A stretch of 50,115 bases of DNA from an uncultured Gammaproteobacteria bacterium. GTDB taxonomy: Bacteria; Patescibacteriota; Microgenomatia; UBA10105; UBA927. A model generated the notes under the pieces. It was not told the origin of the DNA. It searched no databases and saw only the letters and a list, made by a program, of their open reading frames with translations. The position numbers were made by a program, and so were the translations under genes. Of this stretch, positions 5,032 to 46,200 are shown piece by piece (the first letter of the stretch is position 1; each line of letters starts with the position of its first letter). The stretch is from positions 1 to 50,115 of the forward strand of contig CAYMYO010000005.1 of NCBI GenBank assembly GCA_964394685.1, read 5' to 3'.

Positions 5032-6330
5032 ATGAGATCGCATACGTCATTCGTGTGTCAGCAATGCAGCGCGCAGTTTCCTCAGTGGTATGGAAAATGT
5101 CCCAGTTGTGGTGAGTGGAATACGTTGGTCGAAACAGTAAAAGCCCCACTTCGTCCGCCAGCTGGCGGACTACGAGGGGTAAATCCGTCAATTCCACAGA
5201 AGTTATCTGATGTAAAACACATTGAAAAAAATAGATTGAAAAGCGGATTTATGGAATTTGACCGCGTCATGGGTGGGGGAATTGTCACCGGATCAGTAAC
5301 TCTTCTTGCCGGTGACCCGGGAATTGGAAAATCAACACTGCTTCTTCATGTGTTGTCTGCTATTGGCGGCTTGTATGTTTCAGGAGAAGAATCAGGAGAA
5401 CAAATAAAACTGCGGGCAAAACGCATGCATGTAGATGGAACTAACATCATGGTGCTCGCTGAAACAGTATTAGAGGGCATTACAGAGGCTTTGGTAAAAA
5501 CCACCTCTTCACTTATCGTTATTGATTCAATTCAAACGATGTCTTCGCAAGAACTTGATGGAATGGCCGGTTCTGTCGGGCAAATCCGGTATTGCGCAGA
5601 ACAACTCGTGTTGTTTGCAAAATCACGCGGTACCCCCATTCTTATCATTGGTCATGTAACCAAAGAGGGGGAGATAGCAGGGCCCAAAGTACTTGAACAT
5701 ATGGTGGATACAGTACTTTATTTAGAAGGAGAACGGTATCAAGACGCACGAATTCTTCGAACGCTAAAAAATCGGTTTGGGCCCATTGAAGAAGTCGGAA
5801 TTTTTGAAATGAAGGAAATAGGACTAAAGGAAATAGCAAATCCAAGCGAGATATTTCTTCAAGATCGAGTAAAGAATGTACCTGGGTCTGTAGTCACTGT
5901 TGTCATGGAAGGATCTCGCCCGCTTCTTGTTGAAATTCAAGCATTAGTGGTTTCTAGTCAACTTCCAATACCCCGCAGAGTTACTAATGGTTTTGATTAT
6001 AATCGTCTGCAACTGATTACTGCCATTTTATCTAAGCGACTTGGAATTCCCCTTGGAACCAGTGATGTTTTTGTAAACGTCAGTGGAGGACTCAAACTTA
6101 CCGAACCAGCAGCAGATCTAGCGGTAGCACTCGCAATTCTTTCATCGTTTAAAAACAAACCTGTTGATGTAAAAGCAGTTGTGTTTGGAGAATTAGGACT
6201 TCTCGGAGAAGTTCGACGCGTTGGGCAAGAAGAGCGTCGTATTAAAGAATCTAAACGTTTAGGATTTACAACTATTATTTCTCCAGAACGTACAAAAAAC
6301 TTGAAGCTTGCATCTCAATTACTCGGATAG
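5032..6330 (+). CDS. radA: DNA repair protein RadA/Sms
   Basis: Zn finger CxxC..CxxC, Walker A GDPGIGKST, KNRFG motif and a Lon-like C-terminus. Confidence 0.98.
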   Translation: MRSHTSFVCQQCSAQFPQWYGKCPSCGEWNTLVETVKAPLRPPAGGLRGVNPSIPQKLSDVKHIEKNRLKSGFMEFDRVMGGGIVTGSVTLLAGDPGIGKSTLLLHVLSAIGGLYVSGEESGEQIKLRAKRMHVDGTNIMVLAETVLEGITEALVKTTSSLIVIDSIQTMSSQELDGMAGSVGQIRYCAEQLVLFAKSRGTPILIIGHVTKEGEIAGPKVLEHMVDTVLYLEGERYQDARILRTLKNRFGPIEEVGIFEMKEIGLKEIANPSEIFLQDRVKNVPGSVVTVVMEGSRPLLVEIQALVVSSQLPIPRRVTNGFDYNRLQLITAILSKRLGIPLGTSDVFVNVSGGLKLTEPAADLAVALAILSSFKNKPVDVKAVVFGELGLLGEVRRVGQEERRIKESKRLGFTTIISPERTKNLKLASQLLG

Positions 6331-9439: not shown

Positions 9440-9521
9440 TGTCATGCTGAATTCATTTCAGCATCTAGTATTTAATATTTACACTGGGATCCTGATCCGC
9501 CAGTTGGCGGACAGGATAACA
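9440..9521. repeat. REP-like inverted doublet with a nested CCGCCAGTTGGCGG palindrome
   Basis: TGTCATGCTGAATTCATTTCAGCATCT ... GATCCTGA[TCCGCCAGTTGGCGGA]CAGGATAACA. Confidence 0.6.
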
Positions 9522-20051: not shown

Positions 20052-20073
20052 AATTTAATTGTATCATTATGAC

Positions 20074-22257
20074 ATGTTTGTTGATGATGTATTTATTGTC
20101 CTCCAATGGTGGAGCATTCTGTTTCTTGTTAGTGCAGCTGCGTTTCCACTGACAAAACGGTTATTTCCAACATGGTACGACAGAGGATACTTGTTTAGTA
20201 AAGCAGTTGGCTTTGCTGTTGTTTCATATATCGTGTATGTTCTTGGAACGCTCCGCATCGCTCCATTTACCCAATTAACAGTCTTTAGTGTGATGGGAGT
20301 TGTATTTATTGCAGGAATTCTTCCTGGATTTTTTCATTCAAATAAGCGAGTGATTATTCAAAATAAGAGGCGATTATTATATTGGGCAAATATCATAGGG
20401 ATGGAAGAGCTTTGTTTTTTCTTTCTCCTTATTTTGTGGAGCTGGGTGAAAGCGCATGAACCATCCATCCGTGGACTTGAGAAATTCATGGATTATGGAT
20501 TCATGCAATCTATTCTCAATGCTCAATACCTGCCTGCCGGCAGGCAGGCTTTCCCGGCCATGGATATGTGGTGGGCCGGGGGATTTATCAATTATTACTA
20601 TTTTGGACATCTGGTCACAGCGGTTCTAACAAAAGTTTCAGGACTCTCCCTTTCCTATACATTTAATCTGATGCTCGCAACACTCTTTGCACTTACTGCT
20701 ACCATGGCATTTAGTATTGGGTATCAATTAACGCGAAAAAAGGGCGTAATTGCAGGAATAATTACTGCGTTTTTTGTCACGCTTGCCGGTAACATGCAAA
20801 CGATTTACGCATTTACCAAAGGATATACCGGAGATCCGCCAGCTGGCGGAGTAAAACCATTTTGGACACTCCTGTGGTCATTTTCTGAATTTTTTTCAAA
20901 AGTTGGAGAAGGGATGCAAACGTATTGGTACGCCAACGCAACCCGGTTTATTCCTTTTACTATTCATGAGTTTCCCAGTTACTCGTTTGTTGTATCCGAT
21001 GTTCATGGTCATGTTCTTTCGCTCCCTTTTGTTTTACTTGCCATAGCGCTGCTTCTATATATGTTTACTTCAGAAGTTATGAAACAAACATTCCACATGG
21101 TGTTTTATGGTTTTCTTGTAGGTGTTTTACTCATGACCAACGCCTTAGATGGTCCTATTTACGGATTACTATTTGCCGTTGGGTGGTTTGTATTTGTGAT
21201 ACTACCACATAGAAAAAGATGGAAAACACAGTGGTGGAATCTAATATATCCCGTTGGATATGTAGCACTTATCGCACTCGTAACAGCCCTTCCGTTTCTG
21301 TTTTACTTTAATTCGTTTGCAACAGGGATTGGAGTTAATTGCCCGCCAGCATCCGCCGCTGGTTGGCGGATCGGTCCGTTTATCTTTGAAGAAGTAGAGA
21401 AGTGTCAACGCTCACCATTCTGGATGATGTGGCTTTTGTGGGGATTTTTTTGGTTTAGCGGCGCTTGGCTATTTATAAGAAAAATATGGAAAAAAGAAGA
21501 TCAGAACAGTCCAATCTTACGAATACTAAAAGTGTTCTATATTGTGGGAATAGCACTGATTATTTTTCCTGAATTTCTATATGTCAAAGATATTTATCCC
21601 GCGCATTTTCGCAGTAACACCATGTTTAAGCTCGGCTACCAAGCATTTATTTGGTGGTCGATTATCGCTGGATTTGTGATAACGCACGTTATCTTTTTTA
21701 TGAAAGAGAAGTCGAAGCGGCTTCTGAGAGCTATTATTATTATTCTTTTTGTTCCACAGGTGTTTCTTGTGTCCATTTTCCCCATATTTTCGATTCGGTC
21801 GTATTTTGGAGAACTCAAAAAATACGAAGGAATTTATGGACTCGGATGGTTGGAAAAAGAATTACCAGATAGTAGTTTTGCCATTGAGTGGCTCAATAAA
21901 CAACCAAAAGATTTGGTCATCGTCGAGGCCGCTGGGGACAGCTATACAGACTATAATCACATATCTGCCTTTACCGGCCTTCCTACTATTACCGGGTGGG
22001 CAGTGCATCAGTGGTTGTGGAGGGGGAGTTTTGACATTGTGTCACCTAGACAAGAAGAAGTGAGAATTATATATGAATCAACGGACGTACAAGAAGTGCT
22101 ACCCATACTAGAGAAATATCATGTTCGGTATGTCATTGTCGGTAAGCAGGAACGCGAAAAATACGCAAATTTACAGGAAGAAAAATTTTTGGAGTTTAGC
22201 CGCGTTGCATTTCAGGTCGGACAAACGACGATATATCAAGTTGACGAAAAGAAGTAG
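20074..22257 (+). CDS. DUF2298 / YYY-domain membrane protein
   Basis: Motifs EKFMDYG, INYYYFG, TIHEFP.YSF..SDVH and NTMFKL.YQ. Confidence 0.88.
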   Translation: MFVDDVFIVLQWWSILFLVSAAAFPLTKRLFPTWYDRGYLFSKAVGFAVVSYIVYVLGTLRIAPFTQLTVFSVMGVVFIAGILPGFFHSNKRVIIQNKRRLLYWANIIGMEELCFFFLLILWSWVKAHEPSIRGLEKFMDYGFMQSILNAQYLPAGRQAFPAMDMWWAGGFINYYYFGHLVTAVLTKVSGLSLSYTFNLMLATLFALTATMAFSIGYQLTRKKGVIAGIITAFFVTLAGNMQTIYAFTKGYTGDPPAGGVKPFWTLLWSFSEFFSKVGEGMQTYWYANATRFIPFTIHEFPSYSFVVSDVHGHVLSLPFVLLAIALLLYMFTSEVMKQTFHMVFYGFLVGVLLMTNALDGPIYGLLFAVGWFVFVILPHRKRWKTQWWNLIYPVGYVALIALVTALPFLFYFNSFATGIGVNCPPASAAGWRIGPFIFEEVEKCQRSPFWMMWLLWGFFWFSGAWLFIRKIWKKEDQNSPILRILKVFYIVGIALIIFPEFLYVKDIYPAHFRSNTMFKLGYQAFIWWSIIAGFVITHVIFFMKEKSKRLLRAIIIILFVPQVFLVSIFPIFSIRSYFGELKKYEGIYGLGWLEKELPDSSFAIEWLNKQPKDLVIVEAAGDSYTDYNHISAFTGLPTITGWAVHQWLWRGSFDIVSPRQEEVRIIYESTDVQEVLPILEKYHVRYVIVGKQEREKYANLQEEKFLEFSRVAFQVGQTTIYQVDEKK

Positions 22258-23012: not shown

Positions 23013-24602
23013 ATGGCCTATAAAGCCTCTGTAAAAAAACCAGTAACAAAGAAGAAAACCACAGTTCCTCCGCCTCAGCCAAAGGCTGATGTTGAAGTAC
23101 CAAAACAAGGATTATCCATTGATGATCTGATCGGGGGACCTGTAGAAGAAAAAATAGCGCCTCCGCCAAAGGCGGATCAGCCTTTGGCTGAAGTTGCGTC
23201 ATCTGTGTCTCCGCAACCTGTCTATCGATCAACAGCGCCTGGTGGATCTGCCTTGCCGAGTCAAGGCGGGTTTACCTCGTCGCAAGGCGGGTATCGGCCA
23301 CAATATAATCGTGGTGGAGGAAGATATGATCGACCAATGGGTGGACAACGTTCGTATGGAAATCAAGGATACGGATATCAGTCTCGAGGATATCAAGGTG
23401 GATATAACAGGCCCGTTCAACGGGATTTTATACCAGCGCCAGATGGTGCCGGATTTACTGTCGATATCAATGTCCCAACCGAAACAGTAAAGGGAGTTCT
23501 TGATTTGACTCCAGAAGGACATGGATTTTTGCGTCCTAAATTTACGCCAAGCGATAAAGATGTGTATATTTCCCAATCACAAATTAGGCGTTTTTTACTT
23601 CGAAATGGTGATGAAGTGGAAGGACAGGCACGACAACCAAAAGAAAACGAACGGTATTGGGGATTACTTAAAGTTGAAAAAATAAATGAAGTGGTAGCTG
23701 AGGAAATGGTTAATCGACCACGATTTGACGACCTCACTCCTATTTATCCAAATACACTCCTTCGCCTTGAAACAGGGCAACTGCCTCTTTCAACTCGGAT
23801 TATGGATTTACTGTGTCCAATCGGCTTTGGTCAACGGGGACTCATCGTTTCTCCGCCAAAAGCAGGGAAAACAACAATTCTTAAAGAAATTGCAGCTGGA
23901 GTGACTGCCAATTATCCAAATGTACACCTCATGGCAGCGTTAATCGGGGAGCGACCGGAAGAAGTGACGGATTTAACCAGAAGTATTAAAGGTGAAGTGT
24001 TGGCAAGTAATTTCGATGAATCGCCGCAAGCACAAACGCGCGTTGCTGAAATTGCGCTTGATCGGGCAAAGCGGCTTGTTGAGATGGGTAAAGACGTTGT
24101 TGTTCTTCTTGATTCCATCACACGGCTTGCACGAGCATACAACCTTGTCGTCAATCCATCAGGGAGAACGCTTTCTGGAGGATTTGATCCGGCTGCACTA
24201 TTTCCAGCAAAGAAATTTTTAGGAGCTGCCAGGTGCATTGAAGCGGCAGCAGACAGTGGAAAATCAACCAATGGGTCATTGACGGTGATCGGAACTGCGC
24301 TTGTAGAAACCGGAAGCCGTATGGATGACCTGATTTACGAGGAATTCAAGGGAACCGGGAACATGGAATTGCATCTTTCAAGAAAACTCCAGGAACGACG
24401 CGTTTTTCCGGCTATTGATATTGCGGGATCCGGCACCCGTCATGATGAGCTCATGCTTGGAGAAGATGCGATGAAGCGCATTATTACGCTTCGGCATATG
24501 ATTACCTTGCTTGGTGATGATGAGCAGACCGTCATGATGATCGACCGCCTCGGCAAAACCAAAACAAATGAAGAGTTTTTGGAGAGTTTGAGCCAGGGTT
24601 GA
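23013..24602 (+). CDS. rho: Transcription termination factor Rho with long N-terminal extension
   Basis: Motifs GHGFLR, DVYISQSQIRRF, PPKAGKT, ERPEEVTD, LDSITRLARAYN and EEFKGTGNMELHL. Confidence 0.98.
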   Translation: MAYKASVKKPVTKKKTTVPPPQPKADVEVPKQGLSIDDLIGGPVEEKIAPPPKADQPLAEVASSVSPQPVYRSTAPGGSALPSQGGFTSSQGGYRPQYNRGGGRYDRPMGGQRSYGNQGYGYQSRGYQGGYNRPVQRDFIPAPDGAGFTVDINVPTETVKGVLDLTPEGHGFLRPKFTPSDKDVYISQSQIRRFLLRNGDEVEGQARQPKENERYWGLLKVEKINEVVAEEMVNRPRFDDLTPIYPNTLLRLETGQLPLSTRIMDLLCPIGFGQRGLIVSPPKAGKTTILKEIAAGVTANYPNVHLMAALIGERPEEVTDLTRSIKGEVLASNFDESPQAQTRVAEIALDRAKRLVEMGKDVVVLLDSITRLARAYNLVVNPSGRTLSGGFDPAALFPAKKFLGAARCIEAAADSGKSTNGSLTVIGTALVETGSRMDDLIYEEFKGTGNMELHLSRKLQERRVFPAIDIAGSGTRHDELMLGEDAMKRIITLRHMITLLGDDEQTVMMIDRLGKTKTNEEFLESLSQG

Positions 24603-24608
24603 TTCTTT

Positions 24609-25189
24609 ATGGATAATAGTTATAAAAGTTATAACGATAATAAAAATTATAACGGTTATAAAGATCTGCCATTTTTCCGTCAGGCGGAAATAATCCACGA
24701 TTTTACTGCAGAATTTACCCAAAAATATATTGATTACAAATCCAGGACTCGTGATCAGACCTGCCTGCCGGCAGGCAGGTGGATCAGGCAGCCCGGTCAG
24801 GGAAACAGAATATAGCCAAGGGCTATTTACAAAAGAGCATTGAGGGAAAATTGAAATTACTTGCGGTTGCCCGCGGATCGCTTGAAGAACTGCTTCATGA
24901 CTATTTAGATTATCTGCGTCAACATCAGTTACCCATATGGGACAAGAATGATTCTCGGTCTTTAGTCATTCGAAAGATTGTTTATAAAATTTATAAAAAT
25001 TATAACGATTATAAAATTTATATTTTTTTACCGGAAGAGGCAGCAAATGCGATGGTAATTCTGATCAACCAAACAAATCAATTATTGGATCAAAAACTCC
25101 GTTGGATCGAAGATCAGTTCATCAAAGAAGGTGGTTTCCGGGAAAATTTATTAAAAAAGCGACTCGCATATCGGCAGAGGGATGTATAA
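24609..25189 (+). pseudogene. Four-helix-bundle protein (IVP/Avd-like family) disrupted by a 20-bp insertion
   Basis: Removing 24760-24779 restores RTRDQMDQAARSGKQNIA. Downstream motifs ARGSLEELL.DY.DYLR and FIKEGGFRE are present. Confidence 0.88.
24760..24779. repeat. 20-bp palindrome CCTGCCTGCCGGCAGGCAGG (also at 20529-20548 and 31309-31328)
   Basis: Three identical perfect palindromes, all inside ORFs. Confidence 0.95.
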
Positions 25190-25200
25190 TCTTCATATGT

Positions 25201-26316
25201 ATGACACCACGATTATCTGATAAAAGAAAGAAAGAAATAAACGCAGTTATTTGCGACCGCTCCAATGTTTTTTACTGGCAAACAGACCGTCAAATAACTC
25301 CCGAGGAAGCAGGCACTATTTGGGCGGATCGTCATAAGTACTTCACTGATGAGGAAATAGTATCCCATGTCAATACATTTTGGTCAGATAATCAGGTTAC
25401 ATCTTTGGTTCCTCTTGATCAAGAAGCATCGACAAATCTTGGAAGTGTTAATTCAGTACGCATTGGTCATACGAAGAACGGATATGATGTCATTATTCGA
25501 CTTCATCCGAAAGGCATTCAAAACGGATATTTCTATGTTGAGGCTGAAGCAGCTAGATTAGCAAAATCCATTCACCTTCCGTCATACACAACGTATGTCA
25601 TTCACCTGTATGAACACGATGATGATTTTTCCTTTCAGGCATGTGAGCAATTGAAAGGGATTGCGGTTAAAAAATGGCTTGATCAACATCCTGAAGATGA
25701 AAAACGTTTTATATATGACATTGGAAAAACCATGGCGAAACTGCACACGATTCATGTATCAAGGTTTGGTCCGTTTATCAATGAGTGCGCAAAAGAGCAT
25801 CAGCTCATTGGTATACACAAAATAGAAAGAAATGCCGTTCTTGCAGGATTACCATTTAACCTTGAAGTTTTAACAAAAGAGTCTATTTTTCAACCTGCGT
25901 ACGTCAATAAAATTCAAGAATTATTTGATATGTCTCCACTCTTATCCTGTCAAAATCCGGTTCTCGTTCATAATGATTTTGCCGATTGGAATTTATTGAC
26001 GGATGGCAACCATATAACCGGTATTTGCGATTGGGATGAATGTGTCGGAGGAGATCCTATTGCTGATATAGCTTGTTGGAGCACGTTTTTTAATCCTGAA
26101 CGGCTATCGACATTTTTAGAAGGGTATTTTTCTACTTCTATAAAACCTCATGATTTTGATGAAAAATTTGAGTTATTACGGTTTCGTTATACCATTTCAA
26201 AAATGACCCTCAGGATTCGGCGTTATCTATGGGAACCGAGTTTGTCGATGAAAGAGAAAATTGAAATAGGAAAGCAACATCTTGCATTATCCTTGAAGCA
26301 CTTCAAAATTAGTTAA
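25201..26316 (+). CDS. Aminoglycoside phosphotransferase-like kinase
   Basis: Motifs [19 protein letters not shown] and GDPIADIA. Confidence 0.88.
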
Positions 26317-31133: not shown

Positions 31134-31273
31134 ACGCTTTTAGCGTTGCACATTTCTTATATGTTTGTCAACCCCTTGACAAAAGTATTTCACACCCATC
31201 ATAGTTATTAATATATAAGGAAGCGCGCAAGCGTCTGCTTTTGGGTTTGGAAACGAGGCACGCATCCGAAAAA

Positions 31274-34200
31274 GTGATTAGACGTAGAATTACCGCAGCA
31301 AAATCATGCCTGCCTGCCGGCAGGCAGGGATTTATTCAGATTATCCCAATGGTCATTTTGGCCATTATGGCGATCTCTTCTTTTGTTATTATCAGTAAAA
31401 CAAAACATGATCAGCAGGATGTTCGCAGCCGGGCCGGAATAACGTGTACAAAGAAAACTGGAGTATCCGGTTGTGAATTAAAAACATATAAAATAGTCGA
31501 TGAAGTTTGCGAACCAGAACAATGTTTTACAACATCAGGGAGCGTTGCATCAGTTGTTTCGACGCCAAAACCAGCAGCAACACAGCCTCCAGCATCAACA
31601 TCTGCACCATCTTCATCATCGTCATGTGCTGAAGATGGAGAGCGCCCAACTTCAAAAGGATGTTGTGACGGATTAAGCCTTGTCAGCGGATATTGTACGT
31701 ATGTAAAAGCCAAGGCAACAGTTGCGCCAACAGAAGCTCTTAAATCTTCGGTAACAGCAACACCTAAGCCTGCAACACCAACAACAACACCTGATCCATG
31801 TGCTAATTTAGCCACACCTGATTTACGGGATGCTTGCCGGCAAAGTGGATCAACCCCAACGCCCAAGCCTGCGGTCTCAACTCCTGTATCTGTAACATCA
31901 ACTCCAAAACCTGCAGCGCCCACTTCAAATATTTCTTCGCCAACAAAAACACCGACGCGTGCGCCAACATCAACACCAAAACCGCCGACACCGACTTCTG
32001 ATCCATGTGCTAATTTAGCTACACCAGATTTACGTGATGCCTGTCGTCAAGGTAAATCTACACCAACATCAACACCAAAACCACCATCGCCAACAATAGA
32101 AACGACGTGTGTAGGTGTTGGACAAGCGCCGACAAGCTCAAAGAGATGTTGTGCCGGACTTGTTGTGTACGGGACAACCTGTGCTAATCCGCTTCCAACA
32201 AAAGCTCCCACAAAAATTCCAACACCAACTAAATTATCAACCCCAACACCAACAATAACATGTTTATATGGACAAATAACGGGTTTTGGCGGAGTGCGGT
32301 GCAATGAAGCGCCGGTCTATACAAGCACAACTCCTACAGTTTCTTCTGTTTGTCAATCTGGAAAATACCAATGCAAAACAGAGCAGTGGGGAGTAACTGT
32401 TTCGCAGTTGTGTGAAAACAATAAATGGATTACCAAAGAAACATGCGGTCTTGGATGCGATGGAGGAACAGGGAAGTGTAATGTTTATAAAAATGAATGC
32501 AAGCAGGGAGACCGTGAGTGCAAGAACGGACAATTCAGAAGTTGTAAACAGGATGGTTCTTGGGGAGATTTTATTGATTGTGCAACGAAGACCTGTTCCG
32601 GCAATGTTTGCGCAATGCTGACCTCCAAACCAACATCTCCGGCTGATCGTGTCGCAAGTGAAAACTTTATTCCAACTCCAACGAAGCAAGATTCTAAAAG
32701 CTGTAAATCCGATCAGATATGGTTAGACAACAAGTGTGTAGATGTTGCCTATGCAGGAATTAAATCGTCTGGATGGACAGGTAAGTGGTGTCCTTCGAAT
32801 CAAGATGGAATTTGTTCTCCAGGATTTCCTCCGCAATGTACAAAATATTGTCCCGGAGGATGTACTGGAATTGTGGGTTTTGCCTATTGTCCGGGTAGTT
32901 TAACTCCATCTCCAACCATCGCGTCAGCTCCGGAAGCGACACCAATTCCCAAACCAACATCTCCGGTCGACCGGGTAACCAGCGAGAACTTTATTCCCAT
33001 TCCGTCTCCAGTCCATGCGCTTGTACCGGGAGATAAGTGCGAAAAGAATAAATGTCAAACTACGTGCGAGTTCGGCGGCAAATGGGTTCTGTTTGTTGGA
33101 TGGGTGTGTAAAGACAAGCCTGCAAACTGGATTGAAGTTCCAACAGTTACACCGATGCCGACTATTGCCAATTCCCCTACACCTACTACAGCACCAATTA
33201 CGCAAGCAACAGGCGCTGCGCCAAAGCCGGGAGCGGATTTAACTGTGGGAGCGGGATGCTATAACCCGCAGGAAACTAATCCGTCAAAGAGAGGATCGGT
33301 TAAGAATTGTATAGAGGAGTGCCCGCACGAATACTCGGTTGGCTACGGAGGAGTGTATTATTGTTCTCCGGCGCCGACCGGCGCATCGACTTCGGCAGCG
33401 ACTCCAAAACTAACGCCAACACCCAAATCTCCAACAACAACTCCTGATCCATGTGACGACCCCACAATGACAATTACTGAACGAGCGGAATGTCGGAAAA
33501 AACAAAGCGTTTCTGTTGCAAATTGTGCCGGTCTTACTGATCCAGCTCTCTCTATGTGTATCGCGGCGGTTACCGGAACCGGTGCGTCGCTTCAAATGAC
33601 ACAAACAACAACGCAGGTTGTGCCAACAGGATCGCCGTTTAAAACAGATAGCCAGATTGAGGCAGTACAAAAAGCGTTTGTCGGAGGTTCGATTGGCAAA
33701 CAGGTGGCATGCGGTATATCCGGCAGTATTTCTATCGGCGCCGGAAATGAAGTGTTTGGTTGTAAGGCTGATGGATCATGGGAAAACCTGACAAGAAAAG
33801 GCGTGGATACGTCATACCTCACAAAAGATTCCCGTCCAACGTGGGTTGTTGGGAGTTTGACAGCACAGATTGTAGATACAAAAGCCGGAGCTGTCCCGGC
33901 AGATCAACGGATTACTGTTGATAAGGCAGCAGCCGGAGTTCCATCGGAGGAATCTGTCGGAAGCATTGTCGTTCCAACGCTTCCACCCATGAAGCCATGC
34001 GGTGCGTACCCGGCCGGTTCAGTTGTCATAGGCCCTGTGAGCGGAAACAACGAGCTTTGGGAGTGTGCGCTGGATGGCAGGTGGGTCAAGTGTCCAACGT
34101 GTCTTTTGACAACTATTCCTTCGTATTTAAATACACAATTAGCGTATGAAGAATATCTAAAAAACAGGACAAACGTATCCCAAAGCGCCCGACAGGCGTT

Positions 34201-37200
34201 TGCAGATAGTTATAAAATTTGTGTTTCAGATAAATCTGTAAGCGAAGCCTCTTGCGTTCAGAGGGCGATCGATGGCGCGAGGCAAGCCCAAAATGATAAA
34301 GCGCTTCAGGCATACGCTGATGTATATGAAAAGTGTAAAAAAGAAAACCGTTCCAATTGTGAAGCAGAAGCGCAAACTGCTGCGAAGGATTTCGGATTAT
34401 CCATGGTTGATTCTTTGAAAATTCCTCAAAGTTATGCGGTATATGCTGTACAAAACGAACAACGGCAAAAGAAATTTGATGAGGAATTTAATCCGAAGCT
34501 GATTTCCTATATTTTCTGCGATACGCAGGAGGTCTGTAATCAAGCATATAGTACAGCACTTCAAAGTTGTATAAGCATTGGTGGTATGACGCCAGCAGAG
34601 TGTGCGGCGTTGATAGCTGAATACAAACAAAAAGAAAAACAAACAGAAGCGCAGGGACAATGTGAGGGCGGAGGCAATTACGGGGACACGAGATCGGCAA
34701 CTGGCGGTAAAACAGAAATCTGCGAGTGCAAGACAGAAGAACAAGATGGTCAGCTTGCGATAGTCCCTGGTTCCTGTGGATGGAGAACTGCAAAAGCCAA
34801 TGCCTGCGGTACGCGGTTGGAGGGGGAAAATTGGGTAGATGGCGGGTATTGCTATACGTGTTATGTGCAGGATGGACAGGGAGTGATGGACAAACAACCC
34901 CTGGTTTCTCAATGGGGAGGAGAAGCAATGAGGCAGTTAAATAAAACGCGATGTTCGGAAAATTATACAGCAGAAAGAGATGCATACGGCGGACTTGTTA
35001 TTACGCCAGGCAAAGATGTTTCTATAAAAGTACAGACAGCTTCAGGCGAGCGGACATTGTCTGCCGGGCAAGCTATGTGTGTTGACGGAAAATGCGTTGC
35101 GGCAGAGATGAAAAACGGAAAAACAGAGAAAGTCGACGTGACAGCGACAGGCGCGTCGAGCGCGTATTCAGGATCATGCCCCAAAGAATGCGCGGTGTAT
35201 GGCGGTCGTTCATCGGAAACCATGGTGCAGTCAGGTTTGGCTGGGAAGGTCCGCGGTTACTATCGGTGTTCTGATAATGGAAGACAAGTAGAAACTGTTC
35301 AAATAATTGATTGGCCCGTTGAAGGAACAGAAAAAATAGACGTAAAGATCGCATGCGACTCGGGCATCTGCAGCGCTGGTGTGTGTGTAGAAGGGAAGCA
35401 GGTGCGAGATGCTTCTACCGGAAAATCACAAGTGTGCGGTGTGGAAGAAACATGTACGGTGATTGATCCTAATACTAGTATGAATTTGTCTGTCCGTATT
35501 ATCGAAAAACAGGATGGAAAAAATACTATCTATCTACAGCAAATATCAGATACTGCTCAAGCCGAAGAGTACTATAAACAAGTGAATCAAAATTTATCCG
35601 AATCTATGGCAAAAGGCGACATTATAGATTCTAAATACATTGCCTCATTCCAGGATTTTATCAAAGAAAACAAAGGCGCGACGTTTGATGACTATATTGG
35701 GCAGAAGCAACGGGACTCAATACAATTTGTAAAAGATAACGAGAAAAAATGGTATGACATTTTTCTTAATAAAACAGCGGCAGAAAAAGCGTTCTCGATG
35801 ATGACGGCAGATAACGCAAAGTGGTTTGTCGATGGAGTCGTAAGCGGACGGATAAATACGGAAGATTTTTCCAGACAGCTCGATGCCGCTAGCGGGTGCA
35901 CAGAAAAAGAATTGCAGATGGGTGATGCAGGACGTAAAGCATGTGGTGTTCGGAATCAAAATAAAATTTCCGATCAAGCGACTAATGTTCTTATTAATAC
36001 GTATAACCAGACGCTTACCACTGACGATCGCGTGGGCGTACGCAACGCGATAATACAAAACTTGATTGCTCAAGGAAAAAGCGTTAACGATGACGCGATA
36101 CTTTCGTATCAAAAAAAGCAGTTGGAAGATGCGGCGCATGTAAATAAGAAATGGGGAGCAAATTACTTCAGCCAAAAAGAGCTCGATGATCCGGTGATAC
36201 GAAGCCGTATTGAGCGGGCGATACCTGAGTTTCTTGAAGTGAATGTGGCGGATGACTTTGTTTCGGCTCTTAGGGGAGAAACAGATTATTCTTCGATTAG
36301 GGCGCGGTATGAGGGTGATTCAGGGCTTCGTGCAGGAGCTGGTTTTAATAAATTCTTAACCGGAAATTATGTGAAAGGGCTTGTAGCGATCGAGCAGGGG
36401 AAGGATGAAGGGAAAGACGGGAATTACGGAATGGCCGCATATCATACTGCGCGCGGCGGCTTGATGATAGCGGCAAAGCCAGTCAGCTACGCTGGATTAT
36501 TAATTGTAGGTGCTGTAGGTTGCGCTACAACTTTATGCACAAGCAGCGCTGCGATTTTTGCGGCAGCGATGCCAGCGCTTGGAGCAATGGGTACGATTAG
36601 TGCCGTAGGGGATGCGGCGGCGGCCTGTGATTTATCTCAAGGAAGTGGAGAAGCCTGTGCAAAAGCAGGTGTCAATGTTGCAATGAGCGCGGCGCTTTGG
36701 CATACGGGCAATCTAGGATTGAGGGGATTTCAACTGGCAAAAACAGGTACATCTTTAGCAGATGATGCATTGCGACTTGGTAATAAAATGGTGGAAAGTA
36801 CCGTTGCGAAAAGCGGAGCAACTTCAGGCTGGCAGCAGCTGGGCGCACTGGCTGACAAAGGGGCAATGGCAACGACGCGGGTTGCGCCGCTGTACTTTGG
36901 GTACAATGGAATAGACTGCATGACGCAGGAAGGATCGAATAAGCTTGATTGCGGACTCATGATAGCACAAGCAGGCGTTTCCATGATGCAATGGAGCAAA
37001 GCCTTTCAGACCAGTACAAAACTTTCTGCAGTTGGGAGAAGTCTTGATGTAACCGTTGACACAGGACAAGCCGTTATTGCGTGTGCAATGGCGGCAGCTT
37101 CCGGCAATCCATCCGGTTGCGATCAGGCGATTTTGTATTCCGGTATGTCTTCCGGTCGATTAGCAGGAGGCGGAAAAACAGGAGAAGCATTCAGATCTGC

Positions 37201-40200
37201 AGAAGGAGAAAGGGTGTTTGAATCGGAATATGCCCGTTTGGAAGACGCACGAAGCCGAGTTTATGATCTTTATAACGAAAAAGGTAAACCATTGGACACT
37301 ACCCCTGAGGCGCTACAGGCAAGGAAGGCGGCGGATATAGCGCTGAGAGAAGCAACATATAGATTTGCTCAGGAAGAAGTACAGGTGCGGTTAGGGTTGA
37401 AGGCAATCGGAGGAGATGCGGCAAATTATACCAAAGCGCAGCAGGAGCTGATGACTAAACAGGCGGCATACAAAACCGCAGACGAAGCGTACAAGGCATA
37501 TAAGTCATCAAACGCTGATGCCCCCCCCAAAGATCTGCTGAATAGCGATCAATTTAAGACGTATAATTCGGCCAGAAAACAGCTTGCCGAGGCATTCCAG
37601 AAGTCTGTGGGCGAGCAAACAGTTCTTAAGCCGGTTGAATTTACTCCGAAAAACGATAGCGAACAAAAGATCCATGACGGATATAAAGCAAAGCTTCAGG
37701 ATTTTCAGGAATTCGCAAAAAAAACTCTCCCTGATGATCCGGCGTACAGACAGAAATACTTTGCGCTTGTTGACGCGCAGGAGTCAGTGATGTCGTTGAG
37801 GCAGAACAAAGAGCAAAATAGCTTTACGGAAGCGATAAAAATAAAGCGCGATACTCTTATCCAGGAAAACGAAAAAATACGGGCGCTGGAAGAAGAAAAT
37901 GCAATTTTATCCGCAAAAAAGAGTAAAAGAGATATAAAGCTTAATGCGGCAAGGGTACAGGAAATACAGCAGGAACTGCAGGAAGCGTACCAAAAAACAA
38001 GAGTATTAAGCAGTGAAAATGCGACTCTAGCCCAAGCCCGCGATGAAGCCGGTACAACATTCGGAAAGATTAAAAATGCGTTGGGTCTTGGTACGACAGC
38101 AGAAGGAACGCTTGCGAAAACACAAGCACAAATCAAAAAGCCAACAGCAGTAGGAAATATCAGAGCGATGGCTGAAAACGCTCGAGCAGCGATTGCAGAA
38201 AAAATATTCGGTACGGCAATTGAACCAACTGCATTTGCAAAGCTCGTCGACCGGGCTGTTGGAGAACGTGCGCGAAACAATCTGATGCTTGAGGCAATCG
38301 GACGAAGTTTCGGGAAATCAGAAATTGATGCTGTGACCGGAAAAGTTACAGAAGTATCTCTTATTGATGAACGCGGTGTCAAAACAACAGTCGACATAAC
38401 CGGAAAAGACATTTCAACGATTAATACACTGAAAAATGCATTACTCGGTGAAGGAATATTCGACATTACATTTTCAGATGGAACGGTCATGCGTATTGCA
38501 AAAGAAGGTGCCGGTTTTTTGAGCAAAGTATATATGACCGCAACAGACGCAAATGGTATAACACAGGCAGGAAGAGAAACAAATGTAACTGTCAAATCAT
38601 CACTTCGTGTCCAGGGAGAACTTAAAGGAATAACTAAACCGGTTACTCTTGATGGAACAGAGTATGCAACTTCTGCAGATTTTGCCAAGGCAGCAATAGC
38701 AAAAAATACCCGGTATGTCGACGCAATAATTGATGGAAAACCCATGCGGCTTGAAGTAGCAAACGGGAAGGTGTTTATTTCCGAATTTGATGCAACAGGA
38801 AGACTGCAACGGGTGAGTGGAGTGACCACAAAAGCCTACATTGACAGTAGTTTGCTCACTGGCGCCAGTAAGGCAATGGTTGATCGGTTTGTAACGGAAC
38901 TTGATACGTATGAAACGACCTATCTGAAGTATAGACAAGAGAAATTTACGACAGACAAGGCTAATTATGAGAGTGCACACGCAAAATGGGTAACGGACCG
39001 TGATGCTGCAGCGGCAAGTAAAACTGAATTTAAACGTCCGGAACCGCAACCGCCAAGAGAAATGACTTCGTATGGATTCTATGGACCGGAACAAGGTGCA
39101 AAGAATCAATTGCCGTTTTTAGCAGATGCTCTTTTGGGAAAGCAAACCGGCATGAAAGGAAAACTGTATGAAGCAATTACCGGAATCGGAAAATCAAGTA
39201 CGCTTATTCCTGAAATCGCCATTTTGAAAGCGAAAATGACGAATAAGCCGGTGATGATTATTCTCAATACCCCTCAGGATGTGGCACAATTTTTTGAAGC
39301 GTTCCCGAAAGACCTTTTCGCAAAATTAGCCGATCCAAACAGGCCGCTTACTGTTGAAGAATTTGATGCTAACAGACCGCTTTCAGAAAAACAACTCGCT
39401 GCGGCAAATATTATTGTGACTACCAAAGACGCAATTTTTGAGTCCATCCGTGGCCCTGACAGCAAACCTTTTATGGATAAATTAAACGGCGCAGTGCTTC
39501 TGGCTGATGAAGCGCAGATGACACTTCGGTTGGAAATTGATTACGTGATTGGTCAGGGAGAGAGGACTACAGTCAATGCCGATTCAAAAAAAGTATTTCA
39601 GGAAGTGTATGATAGTGCATTTTTCAAAAAAATGCGTGCTGAACTTGGTTCCGGTTTGGATGGAATCCAAAAAGCGCGGGATGCAGGGACTGTTGCACTT
39701 GTCGATGGCCGCGGAAAAATTATCGATGCAACCACACAGGAAACGTTGTATCGGGAACTGTTGACGCAATCAGAACAACTTGCAGGAGCGACAAAAGATT
39801 CTACCAGGGTTTATATAGAGGAATATCAAAAAACGCATAACGGATCCACATTTGAAGACGGAATACTTGATTTCCTCAATAAAACAGATTTTGCAGGCCT
39901 TCCGGATTCAGCGGGACTTCGAAATGCACAGGTAGAAATGCGCAAACGGGTGTCTGTCGCAAATAGCATTATCAATCAATTTGCACAAGTTCCGTTGACT
40001 GATTATACGGTGAAAGACGGACGCATCGTGTTAGCTGAGGGCGGAGCAATTTCAGGCCGTACCCCCTCACGTGCTTCAGATTCCCTTGCGTTGGAATATG
40101 TGGGATACGAAACACTTAAAGGTCGCAATCCGAACCTTAATGTCACGCTTCAGCCTGATCAGGTAACCGTGACCAATTCCAGTGTTTCGACCAATTATGC

Positions 40201-43200
40201 GCGGTTTTTGAAGAATTTTTCGGAAATTTATGGATTTACCGGCACCCCGGAAACGGTCCGTCAACAGTTTGACAGGATTTACGGAGTAAAACTGGGAACC
40301 GGCGGGATTAATCAGGTTGATTTCGTGTTTGGTACAAAATCTACAACAGGGACATTTGCAGGAGGCGATCATCCTCCAGCTTCACTTCGTGGCGCAACAA
40401 GCGTACAGGATATAGAAATACGTTTAGCAGAAATTCGTGGTTCTCGAACATCCAAATCAAATATTAATTCTGATATTGAAATCATCGTCAATGCTGATCG
40501 TGGAGTGCCTTCGGATGAACTCATCGTCATGCAACAAAAATTACGTCCGGATGCAACCATTATTGTTAATAATCCGAACGGTGAGCATTATAAATTAACT
40601 GCGGTAACCGATAGCGCAGGTACGACAACGTGGCAACGGACGCCACTCAATGAAACTGCAGCGAGAGCGGAAGGGTACGCATCTGCAAAAGACATGATTG
40701 ATGCGGAAATGGCATATGTGCGAAATCAAAAAGGGAAGGCCGTGATGGTGTATGAATTTGGCCAGCATTATGGCGTTGACCGCGTCACGTTACAAAACGA
40801 AGCGTTTACAGTGCTTACCGGTCCTGATACGACAATGACAGAATTATTGCAGGCAATCGGGCGTGACCGCGGACTTAATGGCGGGAATGCATCGAGTGCC
40901 TATTCACAGTTTGACATTATCAAAAGAGGAGAGGGAAATGATCTTATGTATCTTCAACCCGATCAAATTCTTGAGTATGCCTCAAAAACATTTATCGAGA
41001 CGGAGGCGGCGGCAAACCGTCAGGCAGAGCTTCAGGCTGTGGGAAGAATAGCGGAAAATATCGGATTTGACATCCTTTCCCGAATGCAGAATGCGGCAAC
41101 ACCGAAAAGCTTTATGGATAAGGTGACCGGTCGGGGGCTTGATCCGGTTGTTCTAGACCAGCTGACTCGTATTCGCGAAGGGTTGCGTCAACAGGCGGAA
41201 CTTGATTTTTCCATAGGAAAAAGTGAAATTACCGGAAAAGCAGATGTTTTGGAAAAGATAAATACCGTACAGCGATATCTCGCAAGTGAACTTGCGCGGA
41301 TTGAAGCCGATCCAAATCTTGTAAACAGTATTGGAGCAGATGGAATGAAAGTGTTGCGTGATGCAGTTGGGACGAAAGTAGCGTTTACAGAAGCAGATTT
41401 GACCTTAACCGGAAACGGAACTTCCGGAGGGAAGAAAATCGCTATTGTTCCATATAACGATATTAAAACGATTCGTGATTATGTAGATCAACTCAATGCG
41501 GTGATGAAAGAGTCTGATCTTCCGGACACTATCGCCCGCGGAAAAACTCCAACCCAGAAAAATATCGAACCTATTGCAGCACAACAACCAGCCACCCGTC
41601 CCGATCTCACCACCCCCGCCTCCCGCCAGCAGGCAATAACGGCAGGGCAGGAAGCGATCAGGAACTGGCAGGCGGATCCGGCGTTTGTGCGTACACCTGC
41701 CGACAGAGCACAAGTATTAACCGGTTTATCTGCGGTACGAGCTGCAGCAGCAGCTGCGCTTGCAAATGTTGCTCAAGCTCAAGCGGCTCTGGATGCTCTT
41801 GCAAAAGAAGCAAAACCATATCAAGTATCAGCATTACCCGGAGCTAAATTTCAAATGGGCGATGTTGTTGGTACCGTAAAAATTGAAAGCCCTGATCAAC
41901 TTATATTGCGTATACCAAAAACCGGCGGAAGATCGGTAACGACCGCAGATCAAACGACGTTTGATTTTGACAACAACACCTATATTATTGCTCCAAAAGA
42001 TTATACAGGTAACCAGACGAAAGCGGACGTGTTGGCAAAGGGCGGTATTGAAGTAACGGCTGATACGCAAGTAACGCGTCAGGAACCTGTAAATTCAGAG
42101 GCGGCAGAAGAAGCGCGGACTGGGCGTAACTCCGCGCAACAGGCGGCAGCAGAAGCACAGCAGAGTCAGGATACATTTGAAAACGCCGCCCGTGAGGACG
42201 TAGCGACACGGTTGGGGAATGCATTAAGCACAACTACTGATATTCCAGTCACAGCTGTCCAGGCGATTGTGGATTATGAAACCGCGGCAGCGGAAGCAGT
42301 CACCAAGATGCCGGAAGCAGAGGCACAGAATATATCAGACCCAACAGTACTAGATCAAAACGCCACAGTACAAAATGTACGAAAAACAGCAGTGACAGCG
42401 CTTGATGCATATAAAATAGTAAATACCCTTACTTTTGAAACAGATACCGTTTTGAACAGCGTCTCCCATCCGGTGATGCGGGCGTTTATCGCCGCGGCGA
42501 GAGAAGCGTCAGAACAGCCGGCGGCAGTGCAGCCGGAAATCCAGCCTGCGCAGGCGCAAAAAGTCAGATTTAGCCTTATTAACTGGTGGGAAAACACCGC
42601 CAAGCCGTGGATTGTTGATTTTTTTAAACGCGATAAAGCCCCTGTACAGACTGATGTTCTTGAGGAAGAAAAACAGATAGCGCAGAGAACAGTAGAAGAA
42701 TTAGATGTTAAACGTAAACAAGCAGAAACGGCGTTAAATACAGCAAAATCAAAAGAGAAAGAGTTGACGGATTTATTAAAGAAGAGCGCCGATAATAGCG
42801 AAAGCGAGCGCAAGAAGAAGGAAAACAACACCAAGGCCGCAGCCGTAATGCGAGAAGAAACAAGCACGCTCCTGAAGAGAACAATGAGAGAGGCGGCTAT
42901 GTTAATTAACAAACAAGATAATCTTAGTGATATTAAGCCGGAAAACATATTTTCTCAATTGGATTACGCTATTCGATCATTTCTATATCAACAACATTTA
43001 AGTAAACCCGACTATAAGAACGGCGTCATTTTAAAATTTAAAGCCGCAGGATTATCAGATGAAGACGCGATGTCTATTTATAAAGAATTTGAAAATAAGC
43101 TTTATTCCCTGGAAACATTTGATACGATAAAATCTTTGATCATAAGTGGGATAGAATTTGATGAAAAAGACGGAATAAAAGAAATAGAAATAACAGAGGA

Positions 43201-46200
43201 GATGCAACAATTGTATCGTCTGATGATCGGCGACACGCATGCGGATCCGGAGCAGGCAGAGAAAATATTATTCGAGCAAGGAGCAATAACAGTTGATCCA
43301 AAAACCGGTGAGTGGAAATTGAAGGATCCGAATTTGATATTAACGTTCCTTGGTGATTATTTTGACCGCGGGATTAAATTTGACAAAGAGAAACAGCAGT
43401 TTGTTATCAGACCGTATTTGGTGCAATCCGATAAATGGAAGAGGTATGCCCGCCAGCCGGGACTGGAGCTATTAAGGAGGCTAACTGACCTGCGACGCCA
43501 AGCGGAACAAGGCGGCGGAAAGATGATACTGATGGGGGGTAATCATGAGGTTCTATTTTTGGGTGCCGCGCTCGATGATATAAATTCGCATAATTTTGAA
43601 GGCTTCGGAAATTATGGCAAAAACGGGGTTGACAAAGAAGAAGTGCGCTTGGCAAAAAAAGATATAACTGGCCTTCGGACGATGCTTTCTTCTATGGACT
43701 GGGTGGTGATCCGGTCTGGCGGCGGAATACTCCAGCATTCTGATACCGCAATGTATGCCAAGTATCTTTTTCCCGATGAACATTTTGAGGAAACAGCAGA
43801 TGGTTTAATTTCAGAGAGTGACCTACAAAGAATTGTTGAAAGAGTACGAAAACAAGGATTAACAGCACAACAAGCGGCTGGAATGATAAACCGGAATATC
43901 AAAGCGATCATAAAAAGCGGAAACAGATCGCAAGTCATGGAATTGGCACTTGATTTGACGAAGCGCAGTCAATTTATCCATGATAAAGGAATTGCAGATT
44001 TATACAGGCAATTGTTTAAAACAAACAATAAGTTGGCGCCGCAGATTATTCACGGGCACAATGGAAATATTTCTCATAATTACAACAATGGCACTGTTAT
44101 CAACCTCGATTTTCATATAAGCAGGGCGTATAAAGGCGGAGATCAAGTATATAAAGACGATACAATAATTCCCGGTTTGGAAAAGAGGACAAGAAAACAA
44201 GAAGTACCAATAACACAATATACATATCGGTATACACAGCCAAAGGCGATAGAAGTTTTTCCAAATGATTATGTATTTGGACGATTTGCAGTAACAACGA
44301 AGGATTCTTCGGCGGCGCATCAAGCGGAATTGAACCAAGTTAGAAAAAGAATAAAACAACTGGAAACAGAGATACAGGACTTGGATAAGAGTATTGGTAC
44401 AGCAAAAATCACTCTTGACGCAGCTATGAAGATTTTAGATGCACAAACCAAGGTAAATACGGCAATTGCGGCATTGAAAAAAGAAGGATTGAGCCTCGGC
44501 GCGCTTGCGGTGACAGCGGAGATGGCGAAAGACGCCGGCAAGCTCGGCACAGAGTTTGCGAAGCTCACAGGAGAGGCGATTAAACGCGTGCAAGATGTTC
44601 CCGCGCTTGAAAAAATTCAGAATGCCTTTGCTTCTGCAGCGATTATTCCAGCAGGAATTGTCAGAAGCGCTATCGAGGCTGGGGATGTGACAGGTATTGT
44701 CCGTGGCGCAATTGATGAAGCGCGCGTGCGGAAGGCGGAAGAGGAAGTAGTGATGCCCAAGCCAGCAGCAGTCGTTCAGCCCGGAGTTACTTATGCCATG
44801 AAACCATTTAAACATTGGCTTTATGATGAAGTTAATTACGGCGAGACGTTTGCATTACTTACAAATGATAAAAAACAACCTTTATATATCCTTCACAAAG
44901 ATACAGCAGAAAAAATTGTTGCTGCCAGAACAGTAACGTATTCGCGGATTTTTGGTCTTCGGTATGGAAAAGAGGTTGGATTGAGTCCTGAAGAAGTAGC
45001 AAAATTGACTTCAGTTTCTTTAAGTGGCGCGACAACTTTCTACGAAGCACAGATAGCAAGCCGTGATGTTGTGCGTGGTACAAAATCGGCACAACAGATC
45101 AAAAATCTTGCAAAAGCAAAAATTACCGTAGAAAACAGGCAGGAGAATGGCGTCGGAGTTGAAGGATGGGCATATCGGCATGTGAAAAAAGCCATTGAAG
45201 GGAAGCCGGTCGTCAATAAATGGGAAGCATGGCAACCGACGCTTGGTGTTTTCAAATGGTACAAAGACCGCGTGGATGCAGAGAAACTCACTCCATTTAA
45301 TGACGGAACGAGGAACCGTTGGCAACAAGCAGGCAGTACCGCACTGTATTTCCTGACCCGCGCAACAGGAGTTCCGCTTTTTATTGATGTTGGTCGTGTA
45401 GCGAAGTATTTTATGGAAAATCCGTACATGGTCTGGCCGGTGGTGGTGGGAAGCATCATCCCCGCCAGCGTGATTATTGGATCATTTTTTATCGCGCCAG
45501 TGTTTCAAAACTGGATGCTTTGGACAAATTCATTTGTGCCGTGGGTTTTCAGTTCTTTTTCAAATATTTCCTATGTATTTTTTGGACAAAACGGTGTGCC
45601 CGGACTTATTGTATCGGGCATTATAGCCGGTCTCATAACGTCGTTATCTGCTTTGCCGACCCTCAATCCTGTTCTGACCGTTCGCCAAAAGTATGTGACA
45701 ACAACACAAGCACCAAGTCAGCCTTTGGCTGAAATAGCACCTGTTCCTGCGACTCCAGCAAAAAGTAACATTATCCCATCAACAATTACGATAGATCCAT
45801 CAATATTACCAACAACCGATGGAATTGTGGAAGCGGGTATTCAACAATATAAACAATTTATTGCTCAGCTTCCGCCTTCGATTGCAACAAGGATAACGAG
45901 TCATGCGAGTAATGAAATAGATATAAGTGAATATTTACTTGGGGCATTTATTGGAATAAGACCAGAAGATGATCTTGTGTTAATTAACCTTGCATTGAGT
46001 CCAAGCGAAAAAACCATTGTTGAACAAATTCTTTCAGAGGTCAGCGGGGGTAATATGATAGTAATTCCTCATGGTACAAGTGTCGGTATTGATTATTCAT
46101 TAGTGAATCTCAATGCGATAGAAAGAGTAATTCGTAAAAATCCGGCAGCCTTTCCAGCGGAAGCACAAAGCAATCCTAAGCAATGGATTATAGATAATCC

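Follow-up and report, generated by a model that had tools for sequence, protein, structure and literature searches.

A 20-nucleotide perfect palindrome inserted without target duplication in a four-helix-bundle gene: a probable miniature selfish element

The DNA analyzed here (the window) is a stretch of 50,115 nucleotides (nt), positions 1 to 50,115 of the forward strand of contig CAYMYO010000005.1, from the assembly GCA_964394685.1 of a bacterium deposited as an uncultured gammaproteobacterium and assigned by GTDB to the Patescibacteriota (Microgenomatia; UBA10105; UBA927). After the rho gene, the window holds a gene of a four-helix-bundle family that is split at 24760..24779 by the 20-nt perfect palindrome CCTGCCTGCCGGCAGGCAGG (no strand assigned), hereafter named PAL. 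The N-terminal part of the gene (24609..24759, + strand) comprises 50 codons and the A of a split Met codon, and the C-terminal part (24780..25189, + strand) resumes with the TG of that codon and continues with DQAARSGKQNIAKG and onward to the stop codon, so that the context reads GAT CAG A/PAL/TG GAT CAG GCA (slashes mark junctions). The final G of PAL and the TG form a GTG at 24779, which opens a 136-amino-acid (aa) open reading frame (ORF; 24779..25189) in a different frame from the ORF that enters PAL from upstream (24609..24815). The downstream part matches TIGR02436 (profile positions 33-80 of 109), the four-helix-bundle family, and also the suffix domain TIGR04258 (positions 1-49 of 49), and no Rfam family was found within 24000-25600. 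Exact copies of PAL are present in the window at 20529, 24760, and 31309, with a chance expectation of 0.00 in 100 dinucleotide-preserving shuffles of the window; a fourth match, at 31305, is merely a shifted self-overlap of the 31309 copy. As single-stranded DNA (ssDNA), PAL folds into a 9-bp stem, which is lengthened at 24760 by the flanking GATC...GATC.

A preliminary description of the locus, made from its sequence, had held that PAL was inserted precisely and without target duplication and that its removal restores the frame; comparison with an orthologous empty site bears this out. Since the four-helix-bundle gene was not found after rho in any of the six same-genus genomes (6/6), which match rho only, the comparison genome G061 was used (G000 is the genome of the window; other G numbers are comparison genomes). 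A protein search of 41 family genomes identified in G061 an unbroken 187-aa orthologous ORF (83% protein identity), with which the N-terminal part is collinear over residues 1-51. At the DNA level, the G061 locus (L011) and the window are identical in 394 of 557 columns (71%), and the lone 20-column gap lies exactly at PAL, where G061 reads GACCAGA/TGGATCAG. No base is repeated at this junction and the position of the gap cannot be slid, so that the 24760 copy represents an exact 20-nt insertion without target duplication, and taking PAL out of this G061-like site restores the frame. Orthologous empty sites, the absence of which had been named beforehand as grounds for abandoning the idea of a mobile element, are therefore found.

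The gene broken by PAL is dispensable, and its later decay, which had been proposed from the atypical motif NIAKG, is also supported. G061 carries NIAEG at this position, and the E is found in 13/13 motif-matching homologs (loci L011-L029); in a tree of 19 homologs, the terminal branch of the G000 gene measures 0.20, about seven times that of its sister in G061 (0.029). The longer branch and the lost E fit a relaxation of constraint that may have followed the breakage. Two further features of these genes were observed. A 9-nt unit, nnTTATAAA/C, forms two runs in the gene (24621-24665 and 24975-25020), is translated as x-Y-K/N triplets, and is common to the G000 and G061 genes; because many unrelated contigs from four sequencing runs match 24980-25015 at raised depth, it is a repeat dispersed in the community. 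A second four-helix-bundle paralog of G000 (C11:11041-11472; C numbers denote contigs of G000) is wedged between tRNA-Pro and tRNA-Arg, and genes of this family may thus also act as cassettes of tRNA loci.

The reality of the insert at 24760 was assessed over 24300-25300 with Logan contigs from four runs of one study (X1 to X4). The insert is spanned with 0 differences by contigs of X1, which may be the source sample, and by those of X3 and X4; in X2, two contigs meet at 24781/24782, a break that is uninformative at a depth of 3-4. The check for polymorphism that had been suggested for reads was thus carried out on contigs rather than raw reads: the insert is bridged in three samples, and no insert-free form was present in the contigs of X1 to X4, though contigs drop rare variants.

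PAL contains no stop codon in any frame, and its 20 nt always shift the frame, so that copies surviving in genes need one extra nucleotide. A conserved 732-aa membrane ORF (20059..22257) contains the copy at 20529..20548 (no strand assigned) in frame (YLPAGRQAF); at this site, five orthologs read TAT TTT CCG, whereas G000 reads TA/PAL/C TTT CCC G, i.e., a net gain of 21 nt (LPAGRQA) that is absent from 5/5 same-genus orthologs compared. The copy at 31309..31328 (no strand assigned) is likewise in frame (SCLPAGRQGF), in an N-terminal tail before the first hydrophobic helix, and its net size cannot be fixed because the tail is too diverged from that of G006 (18 versus 12 residues before GFIQ). 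Of the earlier claim that both copies are tolerated in frame at a net +21 nt, the part concerning 20529 therefore stands in full against five orthologs, and that concerning 31309 stands for the frame, its +21 not being confirmable. The ORF hosting the 31309 copy is itself unusual: it extends from 31205 to 50113 (6303 open codons), runs past the window end, and looks like a giant surface protein with an N-terminal membrane helix.

The same rule holds beyond the window. All eight exact G000 copies located in ORFs of at least 94 aa (8/8) are read as LPAGRQ, as are 15 of 20 copies in G023, G024, G029, and G033 when the longest covering ORF is considered. A copy in the ribosomal protein L27 gene of G023 also amounts to a net +21 nt, and a 21-nt subfamily keeps the frame within the element itself. 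Copies in working genes thus survive only as 20+1 nt, read LPAGRQ, or as the 21-nt subfamily; the sole bare +20 copy in G000 is that at 24760, in a broken gene.

Across G000 (1.0 Mb in 25 contigs, ~40% GC), we identified 15 exact copies of PAL and 5 copies with 1-3 substitutions, and the family reaches 26 members once indels are allowed. These include five copies of a 21-nt variant with an extra A in one arm (read LPAGKAG), together with other 21-nt forms. Nine of the 15 exact copies are situated in ORFs or the broken gene and one in a tRNA gene, and intergenic copies exist as well. Comparison with the whole of the complete same-genus genome G006 revealed PAL insertions in the genes for S18, RecG, FtsA, and an rmlD-like reductase, and the 21-nt variant is inserted in Lon and at the C terminus of L22 relative to G006 and other relatives. 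In three pilin-like genes, the leader contains PAL or a form with one mismatch, directly before GF(T/S)L. The tRNA copy (C4:7362-7381) interrupts the T-arm of a tRNA-His gene, for which the canonical cloverleaf returns once the 20 nt are removed; a second, intact tRNA-His gene is present on C7. Another copy (C11:36970) adjoins an isolated 3' fragment of a tRNA, directly after tRNA-Thr. The 10-nt half-sites occur in G000 within PAL variants only, and never as the ends of a longer element.

The G000 copies are recent. In the sister species G002 (97/97 support), exact copies are lacking, and the three copies found, all of which differ from PAL by a single mismatch, occupy sites not shared with G000; compared with G000, one of these corresponds to a clean 21-nt gap and the other two to unrelated sequence of similar length. 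The other five genus members contain no PAL within 3 mismatches. Given the lack of exact or shared-site copies in G002, the 15 exact copies are younger than the G000/G002 split. Exact PAL was detected in 15/41 relatives, with 0/6 genomes of the genus, 8/24 of the family, and 4/6 of a second family of the order, and, across the phylum, in 61 of the 301 genomes sampled, at 1-24 copies each; a reversed control sequence gave 0 matches in these 301 genomes. A broad scan with one genome per species, in which phyla were assigned by record titles, revealed at least 123 loci, among them loci of isolates and long-read assemblies. The matches listed include Patescibacteria groups, Omnitrophota, Planctomycetota, Bdellovibrionales, Gammaproteobacteria, "delta proteobacteria," Thermodesulfobacteriota, Thermodesulfovibrionales, Chloroflexi, and Bacteroidota, the last with cultured Winogradskyella, Flagellimonas, Longitalea, and Flavivirga. 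Predicted viral contigs contributed 40 PAL loci, with six copies on one 29.5-kb contig, and many PAL-bearing viral contigs have a GC content of 60-69%. The proposal of an ultra-short mobile element is accordingly strengthened by the 15 exact copies, the empty sites in relatives, and this patchy spread across phyla.

The target preference that had been proposed for examination proved to be a weak tendency only. Over 138 sites, PAL is preceded by A in 42% of cases and by T in 9%, with the mirrored pattern after PAL, and an orientation-free expectation-maximization motif search of 160 sites returned a weak A-(T/G)-A directly before PAL, with C at 5% in position -2. The flanks of the 160 sites contain 1.9 bits of information, compared with 1.1-1.4 bits in random controls, and no conserved flanking tetranucleotide or orienting nonpalindromic tail was seen at PAL sites. 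A flanking direct repeat is lacking at 81 of the 138 sites; repeats of at least 5 nt occur at 6 (5, 7, 7, 7, 7, and 8 nt; 0.2 expected), several of them in heptamer arrays, and a target-site duplication of fixed length was not encountered across the set. At loci from other phyla (L298, L334, L336, and L355) and from viral contigs (L406, L413, and L423), PAL was often observed between heptamer-type tandem units, which produces apparent flanking direct repeats of 7-14 nt. The stem is continued by at least 6 bp at 6/138 sites (0.6 expected), including copies within the center of another copy, and stems of at least 5 bp across the junction were counted at 19/186 sites versus 83/1674 controls taken 80-240 nt away in the same loci; location at a hairpin tip is thus a two-fold excess, not a rule. 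Microhomology of at least 5 nt between PAL and its flanks is not enriched (38/296 near versus 124/888 far flanks), and the excess at 7 nt or more (11 versus 9) is due to nested or adjacent copies. The 24760 copy fits these tendencies, being situated at CAGA/T and flanked on both sides by self-complementary GATC words, by which the hairpin is lengthened.

Several sites have been struck more than once. A four-helix-bundle paralog in G044 carries PAL at the identical codon (GATCAGA/PAL/TGATC), again as a bare, frame-shifting 20-nt insert with both halves still open; because this gene belongs to a different major clade from G000 and G061 and the separating branches are well supported, two changes are forced at that codon. 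In the membrane gene, G023 has PAL at the same position as the 20529 copy, and G001, G002, G003, G005, and G006 are empty; with G023 and G000 occupied and the sister G002 empty, two changes are forced here as well. The C terminus of L27 has PAL in G023, a three-mismatch copy in G000, and none in G006. The D-arm of tRNA genes is repeatedly struck in several phyla (...GGTTAGA/GCGC, ...GGCAGA/CGCGC, and ...GGATA/GAGC).

Among the mobilizers suggested in the preliminary description, reverse transcriptase genes were not found in G000, the single Y1 transposase gene carries another palindrome (see below), and miniature GIY-YIG nuclease genes alone are physically linked to PAL, their role being unproven; a search of G000 for a TnpB domain returned nothing over the cut-off. 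G000 has 12 GIY-YIG matches, 11 of which are in small ORFs (open frames of 78-132 aa), several of them beside tRNA genes. One of these, P0001 (92 aa; contig C9), has its start codon 12 nt downstream of PAL. Its sequence aligns with PF01541 (positions 2-74 of 78) at a score above the cut-off, no NCBIfam match was found, and its sole PDB sequence match is the UPF0213 protein 1zg2 (E 0.0098). On the gene strand, C9 reads nt 1-25 of tRNA-Asp, PAL, GCGCTT, 6 nt, the ORF, and an intact tRNA-Asp, into which the last codons of the ORF overlap. This layout entails a 31-nt duplication of the tRNA 5' end, the displaced copy of which is interrupted by PAL in the D-arm. G006 has a plain tRNA-Asp 72 nt after the upstream gene, which represents an empty site for the whole cassette, and G023 has the same cassette with a protein 86% identical to P0001. 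In G024, PAL lies 23 nt upstream of a GIY-YIG domain (36% protein identity), and a PAL copy 20-40 nt upstream of a GIY-YIG ORF is found at 4 of the 123 broad loci listed and 1 of the 40 viral loci, some after a tRNA 5' piece. PAL was never seen on both sides of a GIY-YIG gene, but on one side only. By simple arithmetic, ~0.013 of the 15 G000 copies would be expected by chance within 80 nt upstream of one of the 11 mini GIY-YIG genes; the association is thus real but in a minority, and linkage is the exception, not the rule. Two other GIY-YIG genes of G000, encoding near-identical proteins of 101 aa (C2:99509-99733 and C2:169883-170107), were observed to be flanked by the AT-rich hairpins ATGCTGAATTTATTTCAGCAT and ATCCTGAAACGAGTTCAGGAT, which belong to dispersed families of 9-13 copies.

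Insertion without duplication, many identical copies, empty sites, identity across phyla and viruses, and sites struck more than once are the observations on which we base our interpretation: PAL is probably a short, non-autonomous selfish element that is moved in trans, of which the 24760 copy is a recent insertion, with the mini GIY-YIG nuclease as the best candidate partner. We infer that mobilization in trans would involve PAL as a single-stranded hairpin. The partners would be single-domain GIY-YIG nucleases of ~80-100 aa, similar to the Ssn enzymes discussed below, with cassettes lodged in tRNA genes. Such a nuclease may nick DNA at loosely defined A-(G/T)-A sites, PAL following the last A, with a slight excess at hairpin tips, and, as a guess, host repair or ligation might set the hairpin into the nick. 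At 24760, the landing site would have been the top of the small GATC...GATC hairpin, with a frameshift as the result and faster evolution of the gene than of its intact sister thereafter. We further put forward, tentatively and as a possibility, that PAL and the tRNA-lodged mini GIY-YIG gene constitute the smallest known mobile pair, i.e., an autonomous cassette of ~300 bp and a 20-nt hairpin set at nick sites, which would be spread over at least nine phyla and phages, hit preferred sites repeatedly, and add seven-residue loops (LPAGRQ plus G or A) to essential proteins.

A number of results weigh against this interpretation. An adjacent GIY-YIG gene is lacking for 14/15 G000 copies, and adjacent copies amount to 0/13 in G015, 0/20 in G026, 0/5 in G029, and 0/7 in G039. 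Any GIY-YIG ORF is present in the fetched flanks at 6 of the 123 broad loci listed and 1 of the 40 viral loci (the flanks extended up to 1200 nt on each side at 80 of the broad loci and less at 43). The neighbors of PAL are instead assorted housekeeping genes: a Pfam scan of 150 of 178 selected ORFs detected no recurring family, with GIY-YIG twice and 23S_rRNA_IVP once. Homologs of P0001 occur in 14/15 PAL-positive and 18/26 PAL-negative relatives, G020 has three PAL copies and no match, and a close P0001 ortholog is present in G023 only. PAL lacks an oriented tail like that of the NTS repeats of Ssn, GIY-YIG enzymes are hydrolases and are not known to have strand-transfer activity, and the weak target information does not by itself account for the same-site hits. 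The read support for the 24760 insert comes entirely from contigs of one study. A single clade of PAL-linked nucleases was also considered and rejected, the tree being unresolved (4 changes, with 12/500 shuffles as low); co-occurrence, which had been suggested as a check, does not discriminate, since Y1/HUH genes show the same counts as GIY-YIG genes (14/15 versus 18/26).

Other explanations were weighed against the same data. HUH enzymes insert hairpin-ended ssDNA without target duplication, so that PAL could be an element of the repetitive extragenic palindromic (REP) type mobilized by a REP-associated tyrosine transposase (RAYT/HUH, Y1), a route also raised in parts of PMC11893778. One Y1_Tnp (HUH, RAYT-like) gene is indeed present in G000 (C12:5000-5344, in a 205-aa ORF), and Y1 genes accompany PAL in 14 of the 15 positive relatives. 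The C12 gene is, however, bracketed (C12:4726-5421) by a third palindrome, TCAAGGCC(G/C)GGCCTTGA, located upstream, downstream, and once inside the ORF, where it is read in frame as IQPQGRALRLS, and no PAL adjoins it; from its layout, this looks like a separate REP/RAYT-type pair. Moreover, Y1 is also found in 18 of the 26 PAL-negative relatives, G020 has PAL without a Y1 match, and PAL is not flanked by a conserved tetranucleotide, and we consider this explanation unlikely. An equally low probability is given to the proposal that PAL does not transpose at all but serves as a signal of the recognition or uptake type, or travels as a passenger, and is spread by transformation and homologous recombination. 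The sites occupied in both G000 and G023 with closer relatives empty (the membrane gene, the L27 C terminus, and the tRNA-Asp cassette) would suit such a history, as would the invariance of PAL across phyla. DNA uptake sequences (DUS or USS) number hundreds to thousands of copies per genome, though, whereas PAL has 15 copies in G000 and 1-24 in each of the positive genomes; PAL also breaks a gene and a tRNA, and most of its sites are mutually unrelated. At the membrane-gene site occupied in both genomes, the flanks resemble each other no more closely than a conserved motif predicts, and the two four-helix-bundle paralogs sharing a site are ~50% identical in protein, too distant for homologous recombination. 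A point in favor comes from Neisseria, where the Ssn/NTS pair modulates transformation, according to parts of PMC11893778.

That the frameshift at 24760 is bypassed, with the hairpin removed from RNA or hopped in translation and a full-length protein made, would account for the same frameshifting 20-nt insert being present at the same codon of independent genes in G000 and G044 with both halves open. The roughly sevenfold faster evolution of the G000 gene compared with its intact sister, the loss of the family's E in NIAEG, and the net +21 rather than +20 nt of the copies in working genes, which argues that 20 nt are not tolerated, make a bypass very improbable. An assembly or library artifact is harder still to maintain: a constant sequence patchily distributed over many metagenome assemblies, and the break of the X2 contigs at the insert, might have raised that suspicion, but contigs of three samples bridge the insert without a difference, copies in working genes keep the frame and are read in the same one, decayed copies exist, and PAL is present in cultured isolates and long-read assemblies, so that we regard this possibility as negligible.

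A second palindrome family, TCCGCCAGCTGGCGGA, was observed at ~30 copies in G000 (up to 1 mismatch, 14-nt core). In the window, it is represented at 20835-20850 and by 14-nt cores at 5155-5168 and 9497-9510. The 20835 copy is in frame in the PAL-bearing membrane ORF, where GE-DV becomes GDPPAGGV with a net gain of 12 nt (16 in, 4 out); 5/5 genus orthologs and G023 lack this copy. Some copies of the AT-rich hairpins noted above carry this second palindrome as a loop (e.g., window 9497), and it lies within 45 nt of PAL at two loci from other phyla (L101 and L106). The Rho gene upstream of the split gene (23013-24602) has an N-terminal extension of ~150 residues rich in Gly, Tyr, Gln, and Arg, and its segment 24332-24367, a conserved Rho motif, has very deep contig matches from many organisms.

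PAL shares features with several known systems and differs from each. Rickettsia palindromic elements are ~100-150 bp long and confined to Rickettsia; like PAL, they are palindromic selfish DNA that lies in frame and is translated in protein-coding genes, including housekeeping genes, whereas PAL, at 20 bp, is shorter by a factor of five to seven, is found in many phyla, and stays in frame only with an additional nucleotide. The GC clusters and byp elements of yeast mitochondria are also short GC-rich palindromic inserts in AT-rich genomes, some in coding sequence; they are organellar, longer, variable in sequence, and accompanied by short target duplications, and byps are skipped in translation, for which PAL provides no evidence. 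In contrast to miniature inverted-repeat transposable elements, PAL has no target duplication of fixed length, and no parent insertion sequence (IS) sharing its termini is present in G000. REPs are imperfect palindromes that are mostly extragenic, have a conserved tail, and flank their own RAYT gene, whereas PAL does not flank a RAYT-like gene and is not mainly extragenic. Seg proteins carry an added DNA-binding domain and are not accompanied by a dispersed palindrome, in contrast to the 92-aa nuclease found here with PAL and a duplicated tRNA 5' piece. REPs and REPINs (mentioned in parts of PMC11893778) nevertheless resemble PAL as short GC-rich hairpin repeats dispersed in the genome without target duplication, and SegB-type free-standing GIY-YIG homing endonucleases, described from phage T4 tRNA gene clusters in parts of PMC2330249, resemble its candidate partner as free-standing, selfishly behaving GIY-YIG genes at tRNA genes.

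The closest parallel is Ssn. Parts of Chenal et al. 2025 (PMC11893778) describe Ssn proteins as single-domain GIY-YIG nucleases that bind NTS/SRM hairpin repeats on the flanks of the nuclease gene and cleave ssDNA close by; how the repeats spread is left open by the authors, who note a layout resembling that of an IS. The likeness consists of a tiny GIY-YIG gene, putatively single-domain in the case of P0001, beside a hairpin repeat (20-50 nt in the same parts of PMC11893778), with further copies dispersed. The differences are that PAL, a perfect 20-nt palindrome, has no oriented tail and is invariant across phyla, that it lies on one side of the nuclease gene only, in a cassette within a duplicated tRNA 5' piece, and that it is common inside coding sequence, whereas 2% of NTS are inside genes (same parts of PMC11893778). 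No occurrence of the 20-mer or of LPAGRQ, nor a description by keyword, was found in the full-text literature searched, outside of which most subscription journals fall, and PAL is apparently an undescribed miniature selfish element. New findings are the orthologous empty site at 24760, the evidence that the gene evolved faster once broken, a second and independent strike on its codon, the same-site occupancy in G023, the subfamily of 21 nt, and the counts showing that GIY-YIG linkage is exceptional.

A length of 20 nt would make PAL roughly the shortest element known to act as mobile DNA. Its identity across distant phyla implies either a very conserved recognizing enzyme or frequent transfer, and the recurrence of hits at identical sites despite a near-absent motif indicates a targeting rule still to be understood. 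Should the partner be Ssn-like, that enzyme family would gain a role in the spread of hairpins, and the two would provide a natural, well-defined nuclease-hairpin pair for ssDNA tools. The fixed peptide that PAL adds to essential proteins (S18, RecG, FtsA, L27, and Lon) makes the element, in the smallest bacterial genomes, an origin of new protein loops as well as of broken genes.

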